Below the pieces are notes generated by a model that was not told where the DNA came from, searched no databases, and was given only the letters and a program-made list of their open reading frames with translations. Below are positions 10,313 through 63,961 of a DNA stretch of 64,000 bases, piece after piece. The stretch comes from Candidatus Magasanikiibacteriota bacterium (GTDB taxonomy: Bacteria > Patescibacteriota > Patescibacteriia > Magasanikbacterales > GWA2-37-8), in NCBI GenBank assembly GCA_030650025.1, contig JAUSEN010000015.1, positions 13,728 through 77,727 of the forward strand. Reading direction: 5' to 3'. The position numbers and the translations under genes are program-made. How positions within the stretch are numbered: the first letter of the stretch is position 1; the number at the start of each line of letters is the position of its first letter.

Positions 10313-10921
10313 TTGATGTTTATGAGTGGAATAAAAAATATTACTATCGGCATACTCGCTCTCCAAGGCGATTTTTTTGAACATGCCCAAGTGCTTCGCA
10401 ATTTAGGCGTTAAAAATAAATATATTAAAACCGCCGATGATTTAAAAAATATTAATGGCCTCATTATCCCGGGAGGGGAGAGCACTGTAATGGCGCGGCT
10501 CTTAAAATTAACTGGTTTAGATAAAAAAATTGTTTTTTTAGCTAAGCGCGGCCTGCCCATTTGGGGCACTTGCGCTGGCTTGATTCTTCTCTCTAACCGC
10601 GTCCGGGGAGGTAATTTTAGACCTTTGCGTCTTCTCCCCATCTCTGTGAATCGCAACTCATATGGCCGGCAAATCAACAGCTTCAGCGAACCCTTGGTAG
10701 TCCCGGTGCTTGGCCAAAAATCAATGTACGCAGTTTATATTCGCGCTCCGCAAATTACTAATACCAACAAGAATGTAATTGTTTTAGCCAGGCGCTTAAA
10801 TAAACAAGCGGTGGCTGTTCAGTACCAAAATATTCTGGGCACGGCCTTTCATCCCGAATTAACCGCGGACAGCCGTTTCCATGGTTATTTCCTAGCTCTT
10901 GTTAGGAAAAACGCGTCCTAA
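10313..10921 (+). CDS. pdxT: pyridoxal 5'-phosphate synthase glutaminase subunit PdxT
   Basis: IGILALQGDFFEH N-terminus, class I glutamine amidotransferase Cys (GTCAG) and HPE triad elements; follows pdxS. Confidence 0.85.
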   Translation: MMFMSGIKNITIGILALQGDFFEHAQVLRNLGVKNKYIKTADDLKNINGLIIPGGESTVMARLLKLTGLDKKIVFLAKRGLPIWGTCAGLILLSNRVRGGNFRPLRLLPISVNRNSYGRQINSFSEPLVVPVLGQKSMYAVYIRAPQITNTNKNVIVLARRLNKQAVAVQYQNILGTAFHPELTADSRFHGYFLALVRKNAS

Positions 10922-10971
10922 GCCCGTTTAACTGGTTTTTTGTGCCTATTTTTGGTATCATATAGGCTGGA

Positions 10972-12396
10972 ATGACATACAGTATTACTCAAAACACCGT
11001 CTATTTAACTGTCGCTTCGGTATTACAAAAAGCGATTTCTTTTGTTTATTTTACCATTGTTGCTCGCATCATTGGAGTAGAAAATACCGGCCAATATTTT
11101 TTCGCCTTGGCTTTTGCCAGCGTTTTTGCCGTGGTCGCGGATTTTGGCATGGGGCCAATTTTAACGCGCGAAATGGCTCGCACTCCCGAGCGTTCCGAGC
11201 GCTATGTAAATAATTTGCTCTTATCCAAATTGCTTTTTGGCGCTGTCGCTTTTATTTTTATTATTGGTTTCGCCAATCTCCTTAACTATGGCAGCGCTCT
11301 CAAGCTTTTGATTTATATGGCCGGGGTGACTATGTTTTTCGATAATTTGCAAACCGTTTTTTATAGCACCTTTCGCGCTCATAAAAATTTAAAGGTGGAA
11401 GCGGTGGGTTTGGTAGTTTCTCAATTTTTGACGCTCTGTTTTGGCACCGTGGCGCTTCTAAGCCGCGCGCCGCTCGTTTATTTGATAGCCTCTTACACTG
11501 CCGCGAGTTTAATAATGGTCTGTTACGGCGCCTATATGGTTAAGACCAGGCTCCACCTCAAGCTTAATTTTGAATTTGACTGGTCCATTCTGCGCTTTTT
11601 TTTAAAATACTCTTGGGCTTTCGCGGCCGCGGCCATTCTTAGCCGTTTGTATGCCTACACTGATTCCATTTTTATTTCTAAGATTTTACCGCCCGCGCAT
11701 TTAGGTTGGTGGAGTGTTCCCTACAAAATTGCTTTTGCCTGGCAATTTATCCCCGTGGCCGTTGCCACCAGCCTTTATCCGGTATTCAGCCGCCACTTTA
11801 AAGATGTTGAGAAGATTAGAGAGACCTTTATCAAAGCTTGGCGTTATCTATTTATGGTGGTTTTCCCTCTCGCCCTAGGTATTATTGCCGTGGCGCGGCC
11901 TTTGGTTCTGAAGCTTTATGGCGCCGAATTTGAGCCATCTATTATTGTCCTGCAAGTCTTGATGTTAAGTCTTATTTTTGGCTTCTTGTCTTTTATATCT
12001 GGAGCCGTCTTGAACGCTTCCAACCGCCAAAACACGCAAACAGTTCTCATGGGTGTGGCCTTGATTGTCAATGTTATTTTAAATCTTCTCCTTTTACCTA
12101 GGTATGGATTAGTTGGCGCGGCTTGGGCCGCTTTGGCCACCAATATCATTCTTACGGTGGCAGGATTTATGATGTGCGATCGTTTCTTAAAATTTTCTTA
12201 CTTGGCGATATTTAAATTAGCCCTGCGTTACTTAATACCCGCGGTTATTATGAGTGTGTCTACCGCTAAACTTATCCCGGTTGTTACTATATTCCCCGCT
12301 ATTTTAATCTCCATATTGTTATATGGCCTTCTTATTTTGATAACGAGAGGCGTTCTTTTCAGCGAACTTAAAGAATTATATCAGCGTTTTACATAA
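10972..12396 (+). CDS. polysaccharide flippase (Wzx/MOP superfamily)
   Basis: 474 aa, about 12-14 TM helices, typical oligosaccharide flippase topology; first gene of glycan module. Confidence 0.7.
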   Translation: MTYSITQNTVYLTVASVLQKAISFVYFTIVARIIGVENTGQYFFALAFASVFAVVADFGMGPILTREMARTPERSERYVNNLLLSKLLFGAVAFIFIIGFANLLNYGSALKLLIYMAGVTMFFDNLQTVFYSTFRAHKNLKVEAVGLVVSQFLTLCFGTVALLSRAPLVYLIASYTAASLIMVCYGAYMVKTRLHLKLNFEFDWSILRFFLKYSWAFAAAAILSRLYAYTDSIFISKILPPAHLGWWSVPYKIAFAWQFIPVAVATSLYPVFSRHFKDVEKIRETFIKAWRYLFMVVFPLALGIIAVARPLVLKLYGAEFEPSIIVLQVLMLSLIFGFLSFISGAVLNASNRQNTQTVLMGVALIVNVILNLLLLPRYGLVGAAWAALATNIILTVAGFMMCDRFLKFSYLAIFKLALRYLIPAVIMSVSTAKLIPVVTIFPAILISILLYGLLILITRGVLFSELKELYQRFT

Positions 12397-19738: not shown

Positions 19739-22003
19739 TTATTTAAAGTTGGCAATAGTTACTTTATCTTGCGCCGCCAGTTTGGCAATTTTATCAGCGG
19801 CGGCAAAGCGGTTGGTTTTGGCTAAGTTATTCAAAGTTATCACCACGTACTGTTTTTTGGTTTTTTTACTTTCTATTAGCATTACGAGCGTAGCGCCCCC
19901 TTCGTCCGTATAGCCGGTTTTACTGGACTTTACCGTGTAATATTTGTTTTTTAAGCGTAATAGTTGGTTGGTATTCAAAAGGTTCTGTATTCGTACTTTA
20001 CCACCAGTTTGTTTAATTGTCACGCGGTAATTTACCTGGCTCATGGCTTTACGCACCGTGTCATTTTTAGCAGTTTTTATAAAAATTTTTAAGAGATCGC
20101 GAGCCGTAGTTTGGTTATCCGCGCTTAAGCCGGTTGGTTCGACTATCGAGGTATTATCCGCGCCCCAGGACGCTAAGCGGTCATTGATTCTGGCTACAAA
20201 ATCTTGCTCGGTGCCGGCGGATAATCTGGCGATTATCTTCGCCGCCGCGTTTACGGACCCCACATACATGGCATTCCAAAGGTCGCCTCGGCTCATTGAG
20301 TCCCGCGCTGTTAATTTGAGAATATTATTTTCCGCGCTGTCGAGCTTTGTGTTATAAGTGATCATTTTTTTATCAGGCACAAAATCCTGCTCCAGCGCTT
20401 CATAGCCAGTTAAAATTTTAGTTATAGAGGCTAAGGGGTAGCGGATATCCACATTTTTACCAGCCAAAATTCTCCCGCTCGGATATTCCGCCAAGAGATA
20501 GCTGCCCGCGGTCGTGGAAATTGAATTTAAAATCGGGCCGCCCGCGTCCCCCAAATATTTATTTTTCGAAGACAAGAGCGCCGAATTAATGAAAATTCCT
20601 TCTCCAGAGGGGAGCGTCGCCAGCGTTAAATTATCGGTAAAAATTATATTTGAGCGCTTGTATCCGAGCGCCCTAAAAGTTTCATCATCCGCGATCCGCC
20701 GGCGTTTGCCCTTTTCTATCACGTAGACAACATTACTGCCTTTCACTTGCAACATAGTGCCATCGGGGAAGGGGAGGGGGAGAGCCGCGATTTCCAAATC
20801 AGCAATTTCGCTGGCTCGCCTTTTTTCCATGGGCACGCTTTTCAATTTCACTTCAAGCAGTACCTCATTGGTGATCGGATATAAAATATTATCTTTTATA
20901 AAATAATATTTCTTAATGTCAGTCACATTAAGAACTAACCCTTCCGGGGCAGTGGTAGAAACGGTGATAGGGGAGCCAATCATATACCCGGCAATGTCAG
21001 TGTCGCTAATCTCCACAATTTCTTGGGGGTTATAGCCGAGCGCCCGGACCACTGCTTCCGAGGCAAATGGCCGGAGCGTGTCATAATCTAAGAGATAGGT
21101 TGAAGTCGAAGTTTGAAGCAGAGAATAATTGGGGAATAATAAATCCACTCCAGTCGCGTACGCCGACAGGTCAGAGCTCGCGACTTCAATCGCGATCTTG
21201 GGGTTTAGGCGGCTGACTAAAGCGCCCATATTGGCAAATTTTCTTTTCACGCCGTCTTGCACTAGCCAGTAAGTATTATCGTCGAGCGACTTGAGGAGCG
21301 TGCCATTAGGGTAAAACATTTCAAACCAGGTGCTCCAAATACGCCAAAAATTTTGATTCCCATGAATATGTGGCGTGTAGGTGTACAAAAAAGCTGTCGC
21401 CCAACTTTGCGGCGTCACCGCTCGGTTGTCAATGACAATGGGAGCGTCTTTCTTTTTTACAACGGGGTGCGTTTGGTTATCATAATACCAGCGAATAATT
21501 CCCGCCGCGTTGTTCACTTGCCGCCCAAAGCCGCGGTATTTTTGAAGGCGACTTTCGTCCATACTACACGCGTCGCAAATGCCATAGCCCGCGGCCCAAT
21601 CCAATTGTTTTTGGGTAGGGGAATCGTCAGTAATTAAACTTTGTTCTTTTTGGAGCGTTACCAGAATATATTTAGGGTTAACCTGGTAGGTATTGGCGGC
21701 GTCGTAGATTATCTCGGCCGCGGTTTTGACAGCGCCGTTAAAATCAGGGCAAGAGTAACTCGCCAAAAAACTGCCGCGGCGCTCTAAAAAATCCTGAATA
21801 TCGCGCGTTGTCCAGTTAGTGGCATTTTGCATTTCTTGGTCCGAAATAATCAAGTGTGGGTTAAAATCCGCCTGTGCTAGGGACGCTAGAGGAACCAACG
21901 TCAGCGTTATAACGCCAATTACTAAACCAAAAATAGCGATGTTTTTGAAGATCGTTTTCATGAGTCTATTATAACATAGACTAAGCAAACAAAAAATAGA
22001 CAT
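19739..22003 (-). CDS. secreted D-alanyl-D-alanine carboxypeptidase (peptidase S11/PBP5-like) with about 480-aa N-terminal repeat-containing extension
   Basis: Signal/TM at N-terminus; C-terminal S11 motifs SITK (SxxK), SAEN-like region, KTGYT (KTG); N-terminal region with about 3 imperfect 40-50-aa repeats (WLVQDGVKRKF..., YYFIKDNILYPI..., VVYVIEKGKRRRI...). Confidence 0.7.
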   Translation of the reverse strand: MSIFCLLSLCYNRLMKTIFKNIAIFGLVIGVITLTLVPLASLAQADFNPHLIISDQEMQNATNWTTRDIQDFLERRGSFLASYSCPDFNGAVKTAAEIIYDAANTYQVNPKYILVTLQKEQSLITDDSPTQKQLDWAAGYGICDACSMDESRLQKYRGFGRQVNNAAGIIRWYYDNQTHPVVKKKDAPIVIDNRAVTPQSWATAFLYTYTPHIHGNQNFWRIWSTWFEMFYPNGTLLKSLDDNTYWLVQDGVKRKFANMGALVSRLNPKIAIEVASSDLSAYATGVDLLFPNYSLLQTSTSTYLLDYDTLRPFASEAVVRALGYNPQEIVEISDTDIAGYMIGSPITVSTTAPEGLVLNVTDIKKYYFIKDNILYPITNEVLLEVKLKSVPMEKRRASEIADLEIAALPLPFPDGTMLQVKGSNVVYVIEKGKRRRIADDETFRALGYKRSNIIFTDNLTLATLPSGEGIFINSALLSSKNKYLGDAGGPILNSISTTAGSYLLAEYPSGRILAGKNVDIRYPLASITKILTGYEALEQDFVPDKKMITYNTKLDSAENNILKLTARDSMSRGDLWNAMYVGSVNAAAKIIARLSAGTEQDFVARINDRLASWGADNTSIVEPTGLSADNQTTARDLLKIFIKTAKNDTVRKAMSQVNYRVTIKQTGGKVRIQNLLNTNQLLRLKNKYYTVKSSKTGYTDEGGATLVMLIESKKTKKQYVVITLNNLAKTNRFAAADKIAKLAAQDKVTIANFK

Positions 22004-25183: not shown

Positions 25184-26632
25184 ATGATCAAAAACATCAT
25201 TTTCGACTGGTCTGGAGTCGTCAATAATAACTTCGCACAATCATGTGAAGCGGTTAATTATGTGTTGCGGCATTTTAACGTCCCTGCCATGACTCTCGAG
25301 GAAATCAAGGCCGACTGGATTCAGCCTTATATGCTGTTTTATTCGGCTCGCATTCCGCATTTAGATATCGAAAAAGAAAAAGAATTATTTTATCTTTCTT
25401 ACAACGAAGCTATTAAAACCACTCCCAATACGGCTTTTGCGGGCATGCCCGAGATGTTAAAACTTTTTCAAGCCGCCGGACTAAATATGATAATTATTTC
25501 GAGCGACCATCCGGGGACGCTGGCGGACGATCTCGACAAATTTGGCCTCAACGGGGTTTTTAACGAAGTATTTGCCGATGTTCATGATAAGCGCGTCGGG
25601 CTCCAAGATATAATGACCAAACACAATTTTAAAAATTCTGAAACTGTTTTTATCGGCGACTCGACGCACGAAGTTGAATCCGGCCAAAGCGCCAACATGT
25701 TAACTTGCGCCGTCACCTGGGGGTTCCAAAATAAAGATAAACTACTCGCCGCGCGCCCGGATTTTTTAGCTGAATCAGTCGCGGAATTAAAAAATATTAT
25801 TCTTCACCGCCACGCCCCGGCCACCAATGTTTTGGGTGTTCGCGTCAGCTTGCTCGATCAAACCACTGCTTTGCGGATAGCCAGCAATTATTTAAAATCT
25901 AACTACCAGTATCATATTTTTACCCCGAACCCTGAAATGCTCGTCAAAGCCGCCTCTGATCATTATTTTCGTGACATTCTCAACACCGGCAACCTGAATT
26001 TATGCGATGGCTTCGGCTTGTGGCTGGCGCTCAAGCTATCCTCGTTCAAATTGTCATTTCGACCGGAGTCCGGACAAAGTCCGGACGGAGTGGAGAAATC
26101 TAGTGCGCGTATCACCGGCGTCGATTTCATGTTCGACTTATGCGCTCTCGCCGCGCGCGAGAATAAAAAAATATTTTTACTTGGCTCTGGTAATAGGGAA
26201 GTGGCTAGTAAAACAAAAGACGCTCTGCAATCAAAATTCCCTAAACTTAATATTATTGGTGTTCATCCTTGGCTGACTATCACAGAAGATGTGGTAACTG
26301 GCAAATTGATCTTAAACGAACTCGAAAATACGCGCCTTCTTGAAGAAATCAAATCCGCCAGCCCGGACATTTTATTTGTCGCCTTTGGCATGGGCAAGCA
26401 AGAAAAATGGATTCACGAATATGCCACGCAAATACCAAGCCTTAAAATTGCCATGGGTGTGGGCGGGGCGTTTGATTATATCTCTGGCAAAATTCCCCGC
26501 GCGCCTAGACTAATGCGCAAAGTTGGGCTAGAATGGCTGTATCGTTTAATCCGCGAACCTCGCCGGGCAGGACGGATTTTTAACGCAACTATTAAATTTT
26601 TATACTATGTTGGAAAGGGATCCGGTAAATGA
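25184..26632 (+). CDS. fusion protein: HAD-superfamily hydrolase domain + WecG/TagA/CpsF (GT26) glycosyltransferase domain
   Basis: N-terminus IIFDWSGVV (HAD motif I with DxS), ...FIGDS motif; C-terminal GT26 region (VLGVRVSLLDQTTALRIA, NLCDGFGLWLALKL, IFLLGSGN, MGKQEKWI); contains a 20-aa insert encoded by palindromic element D. Confidence 0.7.
   Translation: MIKNIIFDWSGVVNNNFAQSCEAVNYVLRHFNVPAMTLEEIKADWIQPYMLFYSARIPHLDIEKEKELFYLSYNEAIKTTPNTAFAGMPEMLKLFQAAGLNMIIISSDHPGTLADDLDKFGLNGVFNEVFADVHDKRVGLQDIMTKHNFKNSETVFIGDSTHEVESGQSANMLTCAVTWGFQNKDKLLAARPDFLAESVAELKNIILHRHAPATNVLGVRVSLLDQTTALRIASNYLKSNYQYHIFTPNPEMLVKAASDHYFRDILNTGNLNLCDGFGLWLALKLSSFKLSFRPESGQSPDGVEKSSARITGVDFMFDLCALAARENKKIFLLGSGNREVASKTKDALQSKFPKLNIIGVHPWLTITEDVVTGKLILNELENTRLLEEIKSASPDILFVAFGMGKQEKWIHEYATQIPSLKIAMGVGGAFDYISGKIPRAPRLMRKVGLEWLYRLIREPRRAGRIFNATIKFLYYVGKGSGK
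26048..26103. repeat. palindromic element D (short member of TTGTCATT-terminated family) inserted in-frame in GT26 domain
   Basis: AAATTGTCATTTCGACC + GGAGTCCGGACAAAGTCCGGAC palindromes + GAGAAATCT; shares left terminus and AATCT motif with element A at 49268. Confidence 0.45.
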
Positions 26633-27660: not shown

Positions 27661-27681
27661 ATGATCCGTACCCGTTTTGCT
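27661..27681 (+). repeat. direct repeat copy 2 (authentic gltX 5' end ATGATCCGTACCCGTTTTGCT)
   Basis: See copy 1. Confidence 0.6.
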
Positions 27682-29151
27682 CCGAGCCCGACTGGTTGGT
27701 TGCATGTGGGAGGCCTCCGTACCGCCCTCTATGCTTATTTAATTGCCAAAAAACAGGGCGGGCAGTTTTTGGTGCGTATCGAGGACACAGACCGCGAACG
27801 ATTTGTAGAAACCGGCACGCTCAATATTTTAAAATCTCTCTCTTGGGCAGGGGTAGTTCCGGACGAAGGCGTAGTGCTTGATGCTGGCGGAAAAATCACT
27901 CAAAAAGGCGATTTAGGGCCGTATATACAGTCCGAACGTCTAGCCATATACAAAAAATACGCCGCCGAGCTCCTCGATAAAAAATCGGCTTATTATTGTT
28001 TTTGTACGAGCGAACGACTCGAAGAATTACGTAAGCAGCAAGAATTAAATAAATTGCCTGGCGGCTATGATGGCGAATGCTTAAAAAATTCTACTCCAGA
28101 AGACGCCAAGAAAAGGGTGGCGGCGGGTGAGAAGCATGTAGTGCGTCTCAAGATGCCTAAAGACGGAGAAACAGTGTGGCATGATTTAGTTCGCGGCGAA
28201 GTCAGTTTTAAGAATGCTCTAGTGGACGACCAAGTTTTAATTAAATCCGATGGTTTCCCCACGTATCACTTGGCGGTGGTTGTTGATGATCATGAGATGC
28301 GAATTACCCACGTTATTCGCGGTGAAGAATGGGTTTCGAGCACGCCCAAGCATATTCAGCTGTATAAATATTTTGGTTGGGAAATGCCGGAATTTGCCCA
28401 TTTGCCGCTTCTTCTTAACCCCGATAAATCCAAGTTAAGCAAGCGCCAGGGCGATGTCGCGGTGGAGGATTATAACAATAAAGGATACTTGCCCGAAGCC
28501 CTTATAAATTTCGTCGCCTTTTTAGGCTGGAACCCGGGTACGAATAAAGAAATATACTCACTATCAGAGTTAGTACAGGATTTTAGTTTAGAAAAAGTTA
28601 GTAAATCCGGGGCGGTGTTTAATCTGGAGAAATTAAATTGGTTTAATAAAGAGTATTTAAAAAATTATTCTGGAGAAAAATTAGCTGAATTAGTTCCAGA
28701 ATTTTTTGTTAACAACGATTTTTATCATGATTTTACAGAAAAGTTAGCTGATAAAAATTTTTTTGGCAAAATTCTTGATCTTGAAAAAGAACGAGTTACG
28801 ACGCTCGCGGAATTGCCCGCAGCCGTCAAGTTTATTTTTAAAATTCCGGAATATTTGCCAGAAATTTTAGTGTGGCGTAAAGGCACTCTGGACGAAGTAA
28901 AAATAATTTTACCAGAATTAAAAAATTACTTAGAGAATTTTGAAGTCGGGGAGTGGAATGAAAAAAATTTAGAAGCAAAAATAAAAATTTGGCTTGAATC
29001 CAAAAAATACTCTACCGGATCGGTTTTGTGGCCTCTGCGCGTAGCGCTTAGTGGCCAGCAGAACAGTCCCGGGCCATTTGAGATTGCCGCGGTATTAGGC
29101 AAGGCAGAATCACTGGCGCGTCTAGATTTAGCTATCAGAAAACTGAAATAA
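27661..29151 (+). CDS. gltX: glutamyl-tRNA synthetase
   Basis: Class I HIGH region RFAPSPTGWLHVGG, KMSKS equivalent KLSKRQG, anticodon-binding C-terminal domain. Confidence 0.92.
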   Translation: MIRTRFAPSPTGWLHVGGLRTALYAYLIAKKQGGQFLVRIEDTDRERFVETGTLNILKSLSWAGVVPDEGVVLDAGGKITQKGDLGPYIQSERLAIYKKYAAELLDKKSAYYCFCTSERLEELRKQQELNKLPGGYDGECLKNSTPEDAKKRVAAGEKHVVRLKMPKDGETVWHDLVRGEVSFKNALVDDQVLIKSDGFPTYHLAVVVDDHEMRITHVIRGEEWVSSTPKHIQLYKYFGWEMPEFAHLPLLLNPDKSKLSKRQGDVAVEDYNNKGYLPEALINFVAFLGWNPGTNKEIYSLSELVQDFSLEKVSKSGAVFNLEKLNWFNKEYLKNYSGEKLAELVPEFFVNNDFYHDFTEKLADKNFFGKILDLEKERVTTLAELPAAVKFIFKIPEYLPEILVWRKGTLDEVKIILPELKNYLENFEVGEWNEKNLEAKIKIWLESKKYSTGSVLWPLRVALSGQQNSPGPFEIAAVLGKAESLARLDLAIRKLK

Positions 29152-29170
29152 ACCTGATATTTTTAGTAGT

Positions 29171-29194
29171 AGGGGCATGATATATCATGCCCCT
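29171..29194. repeat. perfect 24-bp palindrome AGGGGCATGATATATCATGCCCCT downstream of gltX
   Basis: Read directly; preceded by ATATTTTTA; no clear U-tract on either side. Confidence 0.5.
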
Positions 29195-29238
29195 ACGGTA
29201 CGCTTTCAAGCCATAAAATATTATGCTATAATACCGCC

Positions 29239-47035: not shown

Positions 47036-47359
47036 TTAAAAAATTGGCTGCAGTGGAGCAAATTTTATATCTAAAACAATTCTCGTACCGAGGGCCTGTT
47101 CCAACTCGTTTAAAATTTGCTTTTTCTTGAGACGAATTTCCGCTGCCACCGCCGGTGAGGCCACACCCACTAATAGGACGCTGTTTTTAAAACAGATAAT
47201 ATTTAAATAATCTGGAATCAACTTGGGAAAATAATTTTCCAAAATTTGGTTAGCCTTCTCTACTACTAAGGCCGCTGTTACCTGGCGCGCCAAGGGTCTT
47301 TGGCCTTGCGAGCGGTCTTCTAAAATTTTTCTAATAGTCAAAAAACTCATACGCGCCAT
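47036..47359 (-). CDS. DUF721/DciA-like small protein
   Basis: 107 aa; pattern ...AALVVEKANQIL...NSVLLVGVASPAVAAEI... resembles DUF721 (by recall); overlaps start of helicase gene by 13 nt. Confidence 0.45.
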   Translation of the reverse strand: MARMSFLTIRKILEDRSQGQRPLARQVTAALVVEKANQILENYFPKLIPDYLNIICFKNSVLLVGVASPAVAAEIRLKKKQILNELEQALGTRIVLDIKFAPLQPIF

Positions 47360-50300
47360 TCACAAATATCCCGCCAATCGCAACGCGCGCAAACAAACTG
47401 GCTCGGCGTGGCCGTAAAATCACCCGTCATAATCTGGCTAATAGTCCCGGCTAATTTGGCTTTTAATTTCTCTAAATCTTTTGACTCGCCAATAAACGAC
47501 TGCTTAATTTCGTCATTTAAATAATAAAATGTTAATTTGCTCGGCTTACCAATATTTTTAAATTCAGAAATTTCGCCGACCGCAATTTGGTAGAGCAAAA
47601 GTTGTTCTTTGTCATCGCTCGTTAATTTGTCCTTGCTCTGGCCGGTTTTGTAATCAATAATTTCAATAGTGCCATCCGGCAGCTGGTCCAGCCGGTCGAT
47701 ACGACCATTCATCACATACTCCCCCACTTTAATTTTGAACCAGCTTTCAAGACCAATTGGGATGTTCCAATTGCCTTCCTCTGCACTATAAAAAACTTTA
47801 AGAATATCTTTGCCTTTTTTATACATATCTTCACGTTGGCGCTTGTTTTGGTACCAATCACTAATCCATTTGGCATCGTAGATTTTGAGAAGTTCGGCAA
47901 ATTCTGGGGCCTTAATAAGGCCATCTTTTTTGGCCACCGCTCGAGGCGGGGTATCAAATAAAGACACTTGTGAAGCGCTATTAAGCTCTTTTATTCGCTC
48001 ATAAAACGCCTGAAGAGTACTGTGCAGGCTAAGGCCAAAACTAAAACTGGCACTTCCCTTCATGGGAATACGGAGGATATGCGCGAGTTTATATTGATAC
48101 GGGCAGGTTTCGTAAGAGCGGAGCTGTGAGAAAGAAAAAGTTTTTGGCATTTCGTATTCGCCCGGCGCGGCCGGTTTAGCGCGTTCGGTTTTTTTAGGCA
48201 GTTCTATTTTTTTCTTGGCTTTATTTTCTGGCGCCACCAAACCAATCTCATCTAAAAAACGGCTGATTTTTTTAGCCCGAACGCCGCCGTAGTCAAAAGC
48301 ACTCGTAAAATAAAGGCGTTCTTTGGCGCGGGTCATGGCAACATAAAATAAACGTCGTTCTTCTTGCAGATGGCTGTCGCCCTCGGGGAGCTGTTCTTTT
48401 ACCAGGGGGTCGGGAATTTGCAAAGCTTCCGAGCGGCTCCGGGCCGGGAAACGGTCCTCGACTAGGTTTACCACAAATACATAGCGCCATTCTAGGCCTT
48501 TAGCCGCGTGCACCGTTAAAATATTAATCGACTCCGGTGTGTCGCTCGGCTGGTACAGACTACCTTTGTCGCCGGCTGCGACCACCATTAAAAAGTGCTC
48601 GATAAAATTATTAACGTGCGCGTCGGGCGTTATTGCCTCGTACTCCGCAATATAGTCAAAAAATTGTTTTAAATAGCGAATTTGGCGAATAACAGCGCCC
48701 ACCCCTTTGTTTTCTTGGTGCGTTAAGTATGTGAGATAGCCGCTATTTTCTAGGAAGTTATAGAGCACCACCGAAGGCTTGTCCGCGCGCGTAGCCTGAA
48801 GACCGGCGTGGATAATATCGATAAGTTTATTGCCAACCGCAACACCCGCTGGCGAAACGCCAAATTCGGCCGCGCGCTTAAGCGCCTCGTAGTAGGAAAT
48901 ACTTTTACGTTTTGCGCCACTAGTGATTTTTTGTAAATCATTTTCTTTAAATTCCAAAAATGGCAGGCAAAGCAGGCGGTATATGGCGCTCGACTCGTGG
49001 AAATTACTAAGCACTTTAAAAAAATTGACGCAATCAAGAATAATCGCCTGGCGATACAAGCCCGACGACGCCAAAAACTCGTAGGGAATGCCGCGGCTTT
49101 CAAAACCGTTAATAAACGCGTCCGCGTGGCTATTGGCGCGCACCAGAATCGCAAAATCGTCCCAGGTTATGTCTTCATTGGCATCTTTCAAACGCACGAT
49201 TTCTGTGAGCACGGCCGTGACTTCTTCTTCGGCAGTGGCTTTGTGTATGTGTGTTACCGTTCCCAAATTGTCATTCCGACCCGCCCTGGGCGGGGAGGAA
49301 TCTCTGTCCGTTCGCGGTCGCGAACGAGATTTCTCCCCGCCCGCCTGACTTGCATCAGCGTGTCGGGCAGGCTTCGTCGTCGAAATGACAGTTTTTTTAG
49401 CTATCAGTTTTTTATCGATTTTAAGTTTAACCTCCAGGCGGTCCGGGTTATTATTTTGAATGGACTTGTATGCAACATCAAGAATAGCTTGACCCGAGCG
49501 AAAGTTTTCCGAGAGCACCACTTCTTTAGCGTCTTGGTAATCGTCTTTAAAGCGCAGAATATTACTGACGCTGGCGCCGCGGAACGCGTAAATACTCTGG
49601 TCATCGTCCCCGACTACGGTGAGCTGCGATTTTTCGTCAGCCAGAAGCTTGATCAGCTCGTATTGCGCGTAGTTCACATCCTGGAACTCATCAACCAAAA
49701 TATATTTATACTTATTTTGGAATAGTTTTAAAATATTTGGCCGTTCGCGAAAAAGTTTAACCGTGTAAGAAAGCAAATCGCCAAAATCCATAAGCGCGCT
49801 ATCTCGGAGGAGCTGATTGTAAGTGTGGTACGCTAGAGCGAGCTCGGTCAGGCGATTCTTTTCTTCCCCGCCCAGGGCGCCGTTCTGATCTTTTTTGGTT
49901 CCCTCGGCATATTCCAGATATTCCTCGGGCGTAATCAGTTCGTCTTTGCACTTAGAGAAGTGCTTTAAAAATTCATGGATGTGTTTAGTAGGGTTACCGA
50001 GCGGGCGGTAATAATTTAAGTTAAATTTATCGAGGTTCTTCTGGATTAATATCCAACCGGCTGTGTCGGTTAAAAGCTTAAACGAATTGCTCAAACCAAT
50101 ATCAATGGCGTGATGCTCAAGAATTTTTTGGCAAAACGCGTGAAAAGTGGAGATGTGCAAATCCGCGTAGCCAACATTCGTAATTTCGTCCACCCGGGTC
50201 TGCATTTCCTCGGCGGCTTGGTCGGTAAATGTTAGAGCCAAAACTTCTTCGGGCTTGGCCAATTTCTCTTCAAGCAAACGGCAAATTTTGCTGGTGATAA

Positions 50301-50427
50301 CCGTCGTCTTCCCCGTGCCCGCGCCTGCCACAATCAAAAGCGGGCCGGCGACATATTCCACGGCTTCGCGCTGCGCTTTGTTTAATTTAAAATCCGGCAT
50401 ATATTTATCTCCCTTAATTTTTACCAT
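47347..50427 (-). CDS. UvrD/PcrA-type SF1 helicase with C-terminal PD-(D/E)xK (RecB-family) nuclease and Cys cluster
   Basis: Walker A AGAGTGKTTVI, UvrD motifs; C-terminal RIDRLDQLPDGTIEIIDYKTG nuclease motif and CARCDWRDIC; contains in-frame insert encoded by element A. Confidence 0.8.
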   Translation of the reverse strand: MVKIKGDKYMPDFKLNKAQREAVEYVAGPLLIVAGAGTGKTTVITSKICRLLEEKLAKPEEVLALTFTDQAAEEMQTRVDEITNVGYADLHISTFHAFCQKILEHHAIDIGLSNSFKLLTDTAGWILIQKNLDKFNLNYYRPLGNPTKHIHEFLKHFSKCKDELITPEEYLEYAEGTKKDQNGALGGEEKNRLTELALAYHTYNQLLRDSALMDFGDLLSYTVKLFRERPNILKLFQNKYKYILVDEFQDVNYAQYELIKLLADEKSQLTVVGDDDQSIYAFRGASVSNILRFKDDYQDAKEVVLSENFRSGQAILDVAYKSIQNNNPDRLEVKLKIDKKLIAKKTVISTTKPARHADASQAGGEKSRSRPRTDRDSSPPRAGRNDNLGTVTHIHKATAEEEVTAVLTEIVRLKDANEDITWDDFAILVRANSHADAFINGFESRGIPYEFLASSGLYRQAIILDCVNFFKVLSNFHESSAIYRLLCLPFLEFKENDLQKITSGAKRKSISYYEALKRAAEFGVSPAGVAVGNKLIDIIHAGLQATRADKPSVVLYNFLENSGYLTYLTHQENKGVGAVIRQIRYLKQFFDYIAEYEAITPDAHVNNFIEHFLMVVAAGDKGSLYQPSDTPESINILTVHAAKGLEWRYVFVVNLVEDRFPARSRSEALQIPDPLVKEQLPEGDSHLQEERRLFYVAMTRAKERLYFTSAFDYGGVRAKKISRFLDEIGLVAPENKAKKKIELPKKTERAKPAAPGEYEMPKTFSFSQLRSYETCPYQYKLAHILRIPMKGSASFSFGLSLHSTLQAFYERIKELNSASQVSLFDTPPRAVAKKDGLIKAPEFAELLKIYDAKWISDWYQNKRQREDMYKKGKDILKVFYSAEEGNWNIPIGLESWFKIKVGEYVMNGRIDRLDQLPDGTIEIIDYKTGQSKDKLTSDDKEQLLLYQIAVGEISEFKNIGKPSKLTFYYLNDEIKQSFIGESKDLEKLKAKLAGTISQIMTGDFTATPSQFVCARCDWRDICEWRV
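49268..49391. repeat. GC-rich nested-palindrome element A (MITE/RPE-like) inserted in-frame in helicase-nuclease gene
   Basis: Termini AATTGTCATTCCGAC / GTCGAAATGACAG (imperfect TIR); internal IRs CCCGCCC-tgg-GGGCGGG, GGCGGGGAGGAATCTC/GAGATTTCTCCCCGCC, GTTCGCGgtCGCGAAC; encodes low-complexity RHADASQAGGEKSRSRPRTDRDSSPPRAGRND. Confidence 0.5.
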
Positions 50428-62213: not shown

Positions 62214-62414
62214 TTAATCAAATAATACGGCTTGGTATAAAGAAAAACCAGTAATTACTACCAACCCCAAAAACACCATTGTTGGTAGCCATCGCGAACG
62301 CTTCCTAAAACGATGCATTATATCGTCAATAAGCAAAAAAATAAAGAACCACAATCCGGCAAACTGGAAAAAAAATAATAAAAATATGCCCATTATTTCC
62401 AACAATCTAGTCAT
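62214..62414 (-). CDS. hypothetical small membrane protein
   Basis: 66 aa, two hydrophobic helices; overlaps tatD start by 8 nt. Confidence 0.35.
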   Translation of the reverse strand: MTRLLEIMGIFLLFFFQFAGLWFFIFLLIDDIMHRFRKRSRWLPTMVFLGLVVITGFSLYQAVLFD

Positions 62415-63345
62415 TTAACTTAATTTTATTGAATAAATATAGGGCATTTTGCGTAGTGGCCTTAACAACTTCATCATAAGAAACACCGCGAATCTCCGCA
62501 ATTTTTCTGGCGGTAAACTCTACCATCCACGGCTCGCCTCGCTTTCCGCGATGAGGCACGGGTGACAGATACGGGCAATCAGTCTCAAGCAAGATTCTCT
62601 CGAGCGGCATTTTCGCCACCACTTCTAGTAAATCTGCTTGCGCTTGTGGATTTTTTTTAAGCGGCGGAAAGGTGATCACGCCAGTAAAACCAATATAAAA
62701 CCCCATCGCTAAATACTTTTGCGCGTTTTCCCAATTGCTCGTATAGCAGTGAATCGTGCCGGTAAGCGGTGAGACCCCACCCTCGCCCTCCCCTTTGCGA
62801 AGGGGAGGGGAATCGTCGTCCCCCCTCCTTTGCAAAGGAGGGGGGAGGGGGAGGTCTCGCGTCGCATCTTGTAAAATTTCGATCAACTCCTCATGCGCCT
62901 CGCGGCAATGTATCACCATTGGTAAGTTTGTTTCTTTGGCAAGCCTAATATGCTCTAAAAAAACCTGCCTTTGCTTGGGTAGCATTTGCTCTTTACTTAG
63001 GCCCTCGGGAATTCGATAAAAATCCAAGCCGCATTCCCCTATCCCGATTACTTTCTCGCTCGCGCAAAGTTTTTTATAATATTCAAAATTAAATTCTTCT
63101 TCTCTTGATAAAAATGAAGTTTCTTCTTCATCCACAAACTTGCTAAACAAATGCTCGGGGTGGAGCCCAACGCTCGCAAAGACATTTTTAAAGCGCTCGG
63201 CCACTTCCACGGCCCTCTTACTAGTATCACTCTGGGTGCCGACCAAATTTATCACCACATTTTTGGATAAACTGCGTTTAATAACCTCGTCTGAATCAGC
63301 CTGATAGGCATTAAAATGCGCGTGGGCATGAGTGTCAAAAAGCAT
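62407..63345 (-). CDS. tatD: TatD-family metal-dependent hydrolase/DNase with in-frame low-complexity insert
   Basis: MLFDTHAHAHF N-terminus, GECGLDF, VIHCREAHE, IHCYTSNW, ETDCPYL motifs; about 30-aa Pro/Gly-rich insert encoded by element B. Confidence 0.85.
   Translation of the reverse strand: MLFDTHAHAHFNAYQADSDEVIKRSLSKNVVINLVGTQSDTSKRAVEVAERFKNVFASVGLHPEHLFSKFVDEEETSFLSREEEFNFEYYKKLCASEKVIGIGECGLDFYRIPEGLSKEQMLPKQRQVFLEHIRLAKETNLPMVIHCREAHEELIEILQDATRDLPLPPPLQRRGDDDSPPLRKGEGEGGVSPLTGTIHCYTSNWENAQKYLAMGFYIGFTGVITFPPLKKNPQAQADLLEVVAKMPLERILLETDCPYLSPVPHRGKRGEPWMVEFTARKIAEIRGVSYDEVVKATTQNALYLFNKIKLND
62771..62858. repeat. GC-rich nested-palindrome element B inserted in-frame in tatD
   Basis: Hairpins CCCTCCCCTT-tgcg-AAGGGGAGGG and CCCCCCTCCTTT-gc-AAAGGAGGGGGG flanked by GAGACC...GGTCTC; encodes DLPLPPPLQRRGDDDSPPLRKGEGEGGVSP. 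Confidence 0.45.
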
Positions 63346-63352
63346 AATTATT

Positions 63353-63427
63353 CTGTCATCTTGAGCGTAGCGAAAGATCTAAGCGAAACGCTTGCCTTAG
63401 ATTCTTCGCTCCGCTCAGAATGACAAT
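63353..63427. repeat. intergenic palindromic element C (TTGTCAT...ATGACAA family member)
   Basis: CTGTCATCTTGAGCGTAGCGAAAGATCTAAG ... CTTAGATTCTTCGCTCCGCTCAGAATGACAATT imperfect 30-bp inverted repeat between cvpA-like gene and tatD. Confidence 0.45.
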
Positions 63428-63433
63428 TAAAAA

Positions 63434-63961
63434 TCAAGGCAAAACTTTATTAAAATTGTCACGGAGCATCTGTAATGCCTGAGGCACGAGCGGCCACAGC
63501 ACGGCCGCCACCCCCATAGTAAGAGGCGCGAGCGCAGAATTTGCCAAATAACCCATGAATCTAGGGCTAAGCGGATATATTTGCATAAAATTAAAGATTA
63601 TCCCTAAAACCAACACCCCCTCCAATAATCCAAAAACTAAACCCAAAATTTTATTCAATCCATTTAAAAAAGGTAAACGCGTCACTACGGAAAGCAACCG
63701 ATCCACCACCCAAAACAACAGCCCCACCAAGCGGTTTATAATTATAAACGCCAATATAAACATTATGACTTTAGGAAAATTTCCGGCCCAACCAGTAATG
63801 CCAGTAAGCCAATTGGCCAGCGGCTCATAAAAGCGGCTCGCCAAGAAAACCCCCAGCACCGTCCCCACCAATGAACCAAGCGTATGAATTAAACCAAACC
63901 ACAGGCCAAACAACCCAAACCCACCAATAATTATAGCCAAAATTAAGTCAAAAAAAGACAT
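63434..63961 (-). CDS. cvpA: CvpA-family membrane protein
   Basis: 175 aa, 4 TM helices, N-terminal MSFFDLILAIIIGGFGLFG pattern typical of CvpA. Confidence 0.6.
   Translation of the reverse strand: MSFFDLILAIIIGGFGLFGLWFGLIHTLGSLVGTVLGVFLASRFYEPLANWLTGITGWAGNFPKVIMFILAFIIINRLVGLLFWVVDRLLSVVTRLPFLNGLNKILGLVFGLLEGVLVLGIIFNFMQIYPLSPRFMGYLANSALAPLTMGVAAVLWPLVPQALQMLRDNFNKVLP

Follow-up and report, generated by a model that had tools for sequence, protein, structure and literature searches.

In a 64,000-nt stretch of DNA from a Candidatus Magasanikiibacteriota bacterium (GenBank assembly GCA_030650025.1, contig JAUSEN010000015.1, positions 13,728 to 77,727; the whole stretch is from here on referred to as the window) a GC-rich palindromic segment is located in frame inside a gene for a UvrD/PcrA-type superfamily 1 (SF1) helicase. 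The segment is very probably an inverted dimer of two repetitive extragenic palindromic (REP) units, similar to REP doublets forming hairpins (REPINs) and bacterial interspersed mosaic elements (BIMEs), which belongs to a TGTC-tagged family of the CGTC superfamily and persists as neutral or selfish DNA. The host gene and the parts of the element are listed below, where HH (head-to-head) denotes a dimer with its tags outward.

47347..50427, minus strand: host gene, UvrD/PcrA-type SF1 helicase with a C-terminal PD-(D/E)XK nuclease, 1026 aa, identified from Pfam, homologs and solved UvrD/PcrA structures
49269..49390: complete HH dimer of two inverted REP arms, 122 bp, 63% GC, in frame as residues 347-387 of the helicase
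49269..49301, plus strand: arm A, consisting of TGTC tag, ATTCC, GA, the mini-hairpin CCCGCCC-T-GGGCGGG, GA and GGAAT, with the tail CTCTG at 49302-49306
49302..49328: spacer between the arms, holding the 8-bp palindrome CGTTCGCG/CGCGAACG (49309-49326)
49329..49390, minus (coding) strand: arm B, consisting of TGTC tag, ATTTC, GA, CGACGAAG, a 36-nt nested insert, GA and GAAAT
49336..49371: nested secondary palindrome in the loop of arm B, 36 nt, CCCGCCCGCCTGACTTGCATCAGCGTGTCGGGCAGG on the plus strand, encoding PARHADASQAGG, with a related piece in the ortholog P0010

Structure and composition of the insert

The plus strand of 49269-49390 reads TGTCATTCCGA...TCGAAATGACA, flanked by ...GCTAAAAAAAC on one side and ATTTGGGAACGG... 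on the other. A first-pass annotation, made from the letters of the window alone, had delimited a 124-bp element at 49268-49391; the element stands but its length does not, the core from TGTCAT to ATGACA being 122 bp (49269-49390). The imperfect terminal inverted repeats described there were recovered with a repeat finder, where AAATTGTCATTCCGAC at 49265-49280 pairs with GTCGAAATGACAGTTT at 49379-49394 (16 nt, 88% complementary), and the nested internal palindromes were likewise found, namely a 17-nt pair with 94% complementarity (49288-49304 with 49326-49342) and the hairpin of arm A itself (49273-49286 with 49288-49301), both from the repeat finder, together with the spacer palindrome and an additional hairpin within 49336-49371. 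The tags of both arms point outwards and the arms are also able to pair as one long hairpin. On the coding strand the spacer has the ends CTCTGTCCG... and ...CGAACGGACAGAG, similar to the dimer spacers of related genomes. Arm B without its nested insert equals the arm TGTCATTTCGACGACGAAGGAGAAAT (TGTCATTTCGACGACGAAG-GAGAAAT) of two related loci, L083 and L084, and direct sequence comparison identified a relative of the nested palindrome, in opposite orientation, in an arm of the ortholog P0010 (L088 8931-8994, encoding PARHDLPSGMSG).

The GC content of the element is 0.631 compared with 0.454 for the rest of the helicase gene, as had been proposed for a GC-rich segment in a gene of lower GC, and 0.24% of all 122-bp segments in the 64 kb are equally GC-rich. 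Folding of the 122 bp gave -40.4 kcal/mol as single-stranded DNA (z = -7.1) and -70.4 kcal/mol as coding-strand RNA (z = -6.8), and none of 200 shuffles folded as well in either case, so that the hairpin potential assumed in the first-pass annotation was borne out. The terminus motif AATTGTCATTYCGAC, allowing at most two mismatches, has five matches in the window versus 0.29 expected, a number reached by none of 100 shuffles, and TGTCATYYYGA has five exact matches versus 0.16 expected. Each arm of the helicase element, a solo arm at 26052 and each arm of a dimer at 63354-63425 have the TGTC tag in front of the stem. These further copies, which the first-pass annotation had placed at 26048 and 63353 and had rightly taken as signs of a repeat family, are the following.

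26052..26099, plus strand: solo REP arm of the same family, TGTC-ATTTC-GA-CCGGA-GTCCGGAC-AAA-GTCCGGAC-GGAGTG-GA-GAAAT, encoding about KLSFRPESGQSPDGVEKSS
63354..63425: canonical HH dimer, 72 bp, with the arms ATCTT/AAGAT and ATTCT/AGAAT (fold z = -5.9)

The solo arm is in frame within an open reading frame (ORF), 25184-26632, encoding a HAD domain and a WecG/TagA glycosyltransferase, and the TagA-like loop that holds it contains REP-derived peptides in many orthologs and is empty in others. The WecG/TagA protein has 100% identity to a protein of a Magasanikbacteria MAG in NCBI. The dimer at 63354-63425 is intergenic, situated between a TatD ORF (62407-63345) and a CvpA-like ORF (63434-63961). 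Additional copies of the family are present in related genomes. A search of the window with Rfam gave only tRNAs at gathering thresholds and only sub-threshold hairpins resembling miRNA precursors at permissive E-values, and phage records searched by blastn with the helicase element yielded chance-level matches only.

Position of the insert in the helicase

Pfam assigns the helicase ORF to PF00580 (UvrD-helicase, E = 1.9e-80), PF13361 (UvrD_C) and PF12705 (PD-(D/E)XK nuclease), and the nearest homologs are annotated as Candidatus Magasanikbacteria or Patescibacteria, i.e. members of the Candidate Phyla Radiation (CPR). The true start is likely Met10 at 50400, as in the ortholog P0001. In agreement with the earlier statement that the frame is preserved, the ORF of 1026 aa runs uninterrupted through the element with no stop in the gene frame, the net length keeping the frame. 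The element encodes the 41 residues 347-387 (VISTTK...GRNDN), VISTTKPARHADASQAGGEKSRSRPRTDRDSSPPRAGRNDN, and alignments place this stretch, as had been described, between conserved helicase blocks, here NNNPDRLEVKLKIDKKL and V.H.H..TL.EEV. An assembly artefact as the source of the insert was ruled out by P0001, from an independent Logan assembly, which encodes an identical protein over the full 1017 aa.

Orthologs usually have a length of 975-985 aa. One of the two closest, P0002 (78% identity over aligned columns), has an empty site with the short native loop NKTKAD instead, and UvrD of D. radiodurans (4c2t) has 19 residues opposite 65 in the query. In an AlphaFold2 model built on 116 sequences (mean predicted local distance difference test score (pLDDT) 84.5, predicted template modelling score (pTM) 0.80) residues 348-387 have a pLDDT below 50 and no secondary structure, directly upstream of a confident strand at 391-398. 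The 41 residues are thus modelled as a disordered loop, in a region aligning to what we take, from general knowledge of PcrA/UvrD structures, to be domain 2A. The segment is regarded as an insertion because it is absent from P0002 and most orthologs, because of the 19 versus 65 residues in 4c2t and because it is disordered in the model.

An ORF of 242 aa (48997-49725, plus strand) runs antisense to the helicase gene and through the element, the palindrome being open in several frames on both strands; this openness may lead gene callers to produce spurious ORFs there. In one ortholog of 1344 aa (P0027) the Hint/intein domains PF01079 and PF14890 were detected, i.e. the same gene family hosts an intein in some lineages.

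Architecture of the repeat family

The survey of arms covered the window and seven syntenic Magasanikbacteria loci, and the DNA of the orthologs was taken from the contigs encoding them. The loci were partly picked for long helicases, so no claim of enrichment in helicases is possible, and the arms were chosen by paired TGTCAT/ATGACA heads only, which leaves stem complementarity unused and makes the tag present by construction. A profile search of genome contigs using the helicase alignment returned nearly exclusively distant UvrD homologs among its 80 loci, the peptide patterns being too generic.

The arms follow the formula (A)(A/T)(T/C)-TGTC / AT-YYY / GA / variable inner hairpin / GA / RRR-AT / C(T/C)C(T/C)(G/T), the last part being the tail, e.g. 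CTCTG or CCCTG. Perfect complementarity of ATNNN and NNNAT was found in 54 of the 65 arms, compared with 7.9 on average and at most 16 in a control using the stem of another arm, and these 54 comprise seven compensating stem types (ATTCC, ATTCT, ATCCT, ATCCC, ATTGC, ATTTC and ATCTT). Among the canonical arms of 30 nt (n = 16) 98.2% of the cells pair and five of seven pairs vary on both sides, with shuffles and slid registers far below. The two inner pairs, which lie outside the selection, covary in these 16 arms (GC to AU and CG to UA), and the AT...AT pairs are present in 15/16 and 16/16. A canonical arm has nine stem positions (five Watson-Crick, two tandem G.A and two inner pairs) and a loop of 3 nt (GAA, GGA or GTA), or 5 nt without the closing pair. 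The simplest inner hairpin, GAGC-GAA-GCGA, contains GCGAAGC, a very stable DNA mini-hairpin, while in many arms, including both of the helicase element, the loop is replaced by hairpins of 15-50 nt.

In total 25 HH dimers of 72-141 bp were found in the eight loci and credible solo arms are few. The dimers are mostly heterodimers of differing stem types, and their spacers of ~17-60 nt have the complementary ends CTCTG...CAGAG. No target-site duplication of 2-9 bp was seen in 23 of the 25.

Two variants of the arms were also observed. Small GC-rich palindromes of CCTGCC...GGCAGG type (e.g. GCCTGCCGGCAGGCAGGC) are nested in arm loops in either orientation, which suggests a second tier of very small insertions inside the repeats, and a subfamily with ATTGC stem (TGTCATTGCGAG...GCAATC) is present in three related genomes as an in-frame dimer of the radical-SAM gene that lies upstream of the helicase.

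Nested small GC-rich palindromes: window 49336-49371; L088 8950-8990; L083 10950-10985 and 11328-11363; L090 10540-10560 and 20315-20345
ATTGC-stem dimers in the radical-SAM gene: L083 8107-8214; L084 8405-8518; L088 6036-6119; position apparently identical in all three

Turnover in related genomes

A REP-type insert was found at the insert loop in 15 of 116 helicase orthologs, about 100 being without one, and the segment is in this respect lineage-specific, as the first-pass annotation had expected. Filled and empty sites are found between close neighbours at 86-89% identity (P0009 versus P0015 and P0052 versus P0062), adding to the empty site of P0002. The inserts use the reading frame VIxS in seven orthologs and CHSE in six, and the two frames therefore require at least two independent events at this loop, while Fitch parsimony on a neighbour-joining tree of the 116 orthologs gives at least ten gains or losses. 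Inserts of different lineages encode unrelated peptides; it is the DNA hairpin that is conserved and not the protein.

About six hot loops were recognised in the helicase family, situated after query residues 177, 262, 347, 413, 732-751 and 825-834. The highest number among the relatives is found in P0003 (L083), with four dimers in one helicase gene, two of which carry an identical complex arm of 71 nt (plus a 4-nt tail) at 10923-10993 and 11301-11371, and in L084 the arm TGTCATTTCGACGACGAAGGAGAAAT is located in two different loops. Of the 25 dimers, 17 are in frame inside long ORFs and eight are intergenic; in all 17 genic cases the ORF is uninterrupted, with no stop in the gene frame.

Comparison with known repeats

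According to Di Nocera, De Gregorio and Rocco (BMC Genomics 2013, 14:522; PMC3733652) REPs form two superfamilies defined by an unpaired tag, GTAG or CGTC, the latter in many repeats "changed to TGTC" and also found as CCTC. The text of that paper gives CGTC repeats a stem of 8-9 bp, almost invariably with A-T in the first two positions, a loop of 4-5 nt and a tail that mostly is CCA, and describes them as mainly HH dimers, commonly heterodimers, that can form a single large hairpin and whose spacers, 20-100 bp in length, often are conserved or have complementary ends. The TGTC tag, the AT-initiated stem, the HH organisation, the frequent heterodimers, the short tail and the in-frame copies in repair genes are all found in the present family as well, and its spacers (~17-60 nt) likewise have complementary ends. 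The encoded peptides also run parallel (VIPAKAGI, CHSRESGNP and SFPRKRES...DSRFRGND in PMC3733652; VILSEAKNP, CHSERSEES and SFRP...GRNDN here), although none of the peptides listed in its Additional file 3 matches the VILSEAK/CHSERSE-type arms. The inner stem differs, consisting here of tandem G.A and GC-GNA-GC (GAGCGAAGCGA) or of larger nested hairpins, and the hosts, Patescibacteria/CPR, Cyanobacteria and Acidobacteria, lie outside the five phyla listed in PMC3733652.

The same paper tabulates in-frame intragenic REPs, many of them in replication and repair genes, with examples in UvrD/REP helicase (R. palustris and K. olearia), recB (Xanthomonas, same site in two species), a nuclease B subunit of C. 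burnetii, addB, uvrA/B/C, dnaE and polA. This kind of element, including in-frame copies in UvrD/REP helicase, recB, addB and uvrA/B/C, is hence already known from the 2013 tables of PMC3733652, and the finding is less unusual than the first-pass annotation implied. PMC3733652 further equates two Rickettsia palindromic elements (RPEs) of R. conorii with CGTC families (RPE-6 with CGTC-1 and RPE-4 with CGTC-4). One of the related loci, L090, also carries CGTC-1-like (TGTCATTCCCGTGAAAACGGGAATCC) and CGTC-3-like (TGTCATCCCGGGCTTGACCCGGGATC) arms at 10590-10612 and 20274-20298.

The RPEs, RPE-1 to RPE-8, were reportedly described by Ogata et al. in 2000 and 2002. They are palindromic repeats of ~100-150 bp located in frame in many genes of a small-genome host, where they form hydrophilic surface segments, and the present insert shares with them the in-frame position, the absence from most orthologs and the modelled disordered loop. 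It differs in sequence family and host lineage, and in that the modularity of arm and dimer and the nested palindromes are explicit here. The first-pass annotation had labelled the element MITE/RPE-like (MITE, miniature inverted-repeat transposable element), of which the RPE half was supported by the TGTC tag, the AT stem and the presence of RPE-4 and RPE-6 in the same superfamily, while MITE proved to be the weaker label. The CGTC classification suggests that the link to RPEs is one of actual relatedness and not of mere resemblance.

REPINs and BIMEs (Bertels & Rainey; Nunvar; Ton-Hoang; cited in PMC3733652) likewise consist of two inverted REP stem-loops with a short spacer, lack target-site duplications and presumably share a biology of single-stranded DNA hairpins. 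They are distinguished by a GTAG tag and a cognate REP-associated tyrosine transposase (RAYT, of IS200/IS605-type Y1 HUH) flanked by the repeats, whereas the tag here is TGTC and no RAYT was found near the copies in the window, in the eight related loci or in viral loci. REPINs are also mostly extragenic, in contrast to the two thirds of dimers in the eight loci that are in frame inside genes.

Occurrence beyond CPR and search for a mobilising enzyme

The canonical arm (consensus TGTCATTCTGAGCGAAGCGAAGAATC) was also identified in plasmids of Calothrix, Planktothrix and Nostoc and in Granulicella (Acidobacteria), the copy in the latter having CGTC as its tag. Solo arms were found on Calothrix and Granulicella plasmids in addition to the one in the window, and the three records inspected (two Calothrix, one Granulicella) have no repeat annotation at the arm. 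In IMG/VR the exact 26-nt degenerate pattern is present in at least 120 contig stretches with a median GC of 0.59, and at least one phage protein family in these loci contains REP-like peptides in frame. Carriage of the arm by phages is tentatively proposed, as some of the "viral" contigs are possibly misassigned cellular DNA.

When ORFs within 1.5 kb of the arms were clustered for 120 viral loci they were of phage structural families or unannotated, with no recognisable transposase, and neither a long element bounded by arm ends nor a transposase adjacent to an arm was found in ~215 kb of related loci or 1.08 Mb of viral loci. According to the text of PMC3733652, CGTC repeats "apparently lack a dedicated transposase". 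Searches of literature full text with the motifs GTCATTCTGAG and CATTCCGAGCG and peptides such as VILSEAK and CHSERSE returned primers and unrelated sequences only, and a search combining MITE with candidate phyla radiation returned nothing relevant.

RAYT/TIRYT-like Y1 transposase genes were observed in two of the IMG/VR loci (L118 ~1000-1900 and L132 ~1200-1900), on both sides accompanied by the palindrome GTGGCGCAGGCTTC(A/C)GCCTGTGG. These units look like REPtrons and are unrelated to the TGTC family, arms of which are located a few kb away on the same contigs.

Proposed mechanism and alternative explanations

The dimer landed in a permissive loop of the helicase (domain 2A) and would be translated as a hydrophilic, disordered surface loop of 41 residues that neither helps nor destroys the enzyme, as reported for the RPE-bearing proteins of Rickettsia. 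On the model of GTAG REPs and their RAYT, spread would proceed through hairpins of single-stranded DNA and leave no target-site duplication, and purifying selection would then leave just the in-frame copies in tolerant loops, which would explain the repeated hits of the same loops across lineages.

Several observations weigh against this reading. Measured from TGTCAT to ATGACA, the in-frame copies have lengths of every residue class modulo 3, and therefore flanking bases or secondary indels must contribute to the preservation of the frame. The recurrence at one loop could partly reflect an ancient insertion followed by many precise losses instead of repeated insertion, and it is we who infer that the insert is translated and the helicase active. 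No match was obtained in the window or in eight related loci by tblastn with five RAYT/TIRYT sequences from PMC3733652, and the repeat on either side of the two RAYT-like genes of the viral loci is a different one. Also, the canonical loop is a 3-nt GNA and the tail is C(T/C)C, compared with 4-5 nt and, in most repeats, CCA in the CGTC families of PMC3733652; since that paper says "most", the tail sets the present family apart without excluding it from the superfamily. From loop and tail it is therefore concluded that the TGTC arms probably constitute a new family in the CGTC superfamily and not one of CGTC-1 to CGTC-4, as compared by the text description and the listed peptides of PMC3733652.

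The imperfect terminal inverted repeats, the size of 72-141 bp and the multi-copy nature would also fit a classical MITE, i.e. a deletion derivative of an insertion sequence (IS) whose terminal inverted repeats of 15-16 nt are recognised in trans by a DDE transposase for cut-and-paste movement. This is nevertheless improbable, and REP dimer is the better description, because the arms are independent stem-loops with compensatory changes, each end being autonomous, because solo arms occur (26052 in the window, Calothrix and Granulicella) and because 23 of 25 dimers have no target-site duplication; that most dimers combine different stem types and that the related and viral loci searched hold no parent IS or arm-adjacent transposase also speaks against a MITE. 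An even smaller likelihood is given to the segment belonging to the helicase itself, as a selected linker or regulatory loop or as an mRNA structure acting in cis, and being palindromic by chance. Such a segment could account for the extra residues found at the same loop in a number of orthologs and for the frequency of DNA repair genes noted for intragenic REPs in PMC3733652, but most orthologs, one of the two closest among them, lack the insert, which is modelled as disordered and in other lineages uses different frames and unrelated peptides around a conserved DNA hairpin, and the same DNA family is found in intergenic DNA and in unrelated genes.

Least credible, and hardly to be expected, is that expression removes or bypasses the element, for instance through processing of the hairpin RNA or through hopping of the ribosome, leaving a mature protein without the 41 residues. 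The very stable mRNA hairpin (-70 kcal/mol) and the copy lengths that are not uniformly a multiple of three would agree with it, yet the uninterrupted ORFs of all 17 genic dimers represent a constraint that would be needless if the element were skipped, Rickettsia proteins with RPE-1 are reported as expressed (PMC3733652), and neither a known splicing or bypass signal nor an Rfam match was found.

A further-reaching version of the REP dimer reading, which we hold to be doubtful, is that the TGTC arm is a currently active, cross-phylum and phage-riding hairpin element moved by a non-RAYT enzyme and a major source of in-frame insertions in CPR proteins. Besides the up to four inserts seen per helicase-nuclease gene, in-frame loop examples were found in genes for TagA, ATP synthase gamma and radical-SAM proteins and in phage structural proteins. 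If such an element exists, new surface loops would be seeded repeatedly, and an excess in DNA-repair helicases and nucleases might reflect an interaction with hairpin-processing enzymes and not mere tolerance.

Implications

The understanding of the kind of element itself is unchanged by the finding. New here are the CPR host, the high in-frame fraction, the repeated presence of inserts in the same loops, the secondary palindromes nested in the arms and the occurrence of the arm across phyla and in viral contigs, and protein-coding palindromic repeats, best known from Rickettsia, are thereby extended to the CPR. Many low-complexity "insertions" in CPR proteins are accordingly derived from repeats, and it is advisable to mask them before aligning sequences, building phylogenies or predicting structures; filled/empty site polymorphisms are potential strain markers. 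With its conserved tag, G.A-flanked GNA hairpin and lack of target duplication the family is also a well-defined substrate for finding the machinery of CGTC-type REPs.

Gene neighbourhood and other palindromes

The gene order around the helicase is ATP synthase epsilon, ABC transporter, helicase, DciA, a small ORF and MreB. Relatives keep the same neighbourhood, with one or two extra genes, in most relatives including a radical-SAM gene, between the ABC transporter and the helicase. Small genes for 23S_rRNA_IVP / bAvd four-helix bundles are situated between ATP synthase genes in L083 (3409-3795) and L090 (2954-3325) and are absent there in the other loci.

The TatD ORF next to the intergenic dimer (62407-63345) holds in-frame palindromes of a second, unrelated family at 62775-62850 (minus strand), consisting of TCCCCCCTCCTTTGCAAAGGAGGGGGGA, a perfect 28-nt palindrome at 62819-62846, followed by CCCCTCCCCTTCGCAAAGGGGAGGG, which jointly encode LPLPPPLQRRGDDDSPPLRKGEGEGGVSPL. 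The TatD protein spans 304 residues across a 253-position Pfam profile, and peptides like those of its insert (PPLxKGG / PLERGG) are found at several of the hot loops of helicase orthologs. Another perfect 28-nt palindrome, GTAGGGGCATGATATATCATGCCCCTAC, is located at 29169-29196, in the gap between ORF 27661-29151, whose stop lies 18 nt away, and the next ORF, which begins ~40 nt further on; the palindrome starts with GTAG and could be either a GTAG-tagged REP or a plain terminator hairpin.

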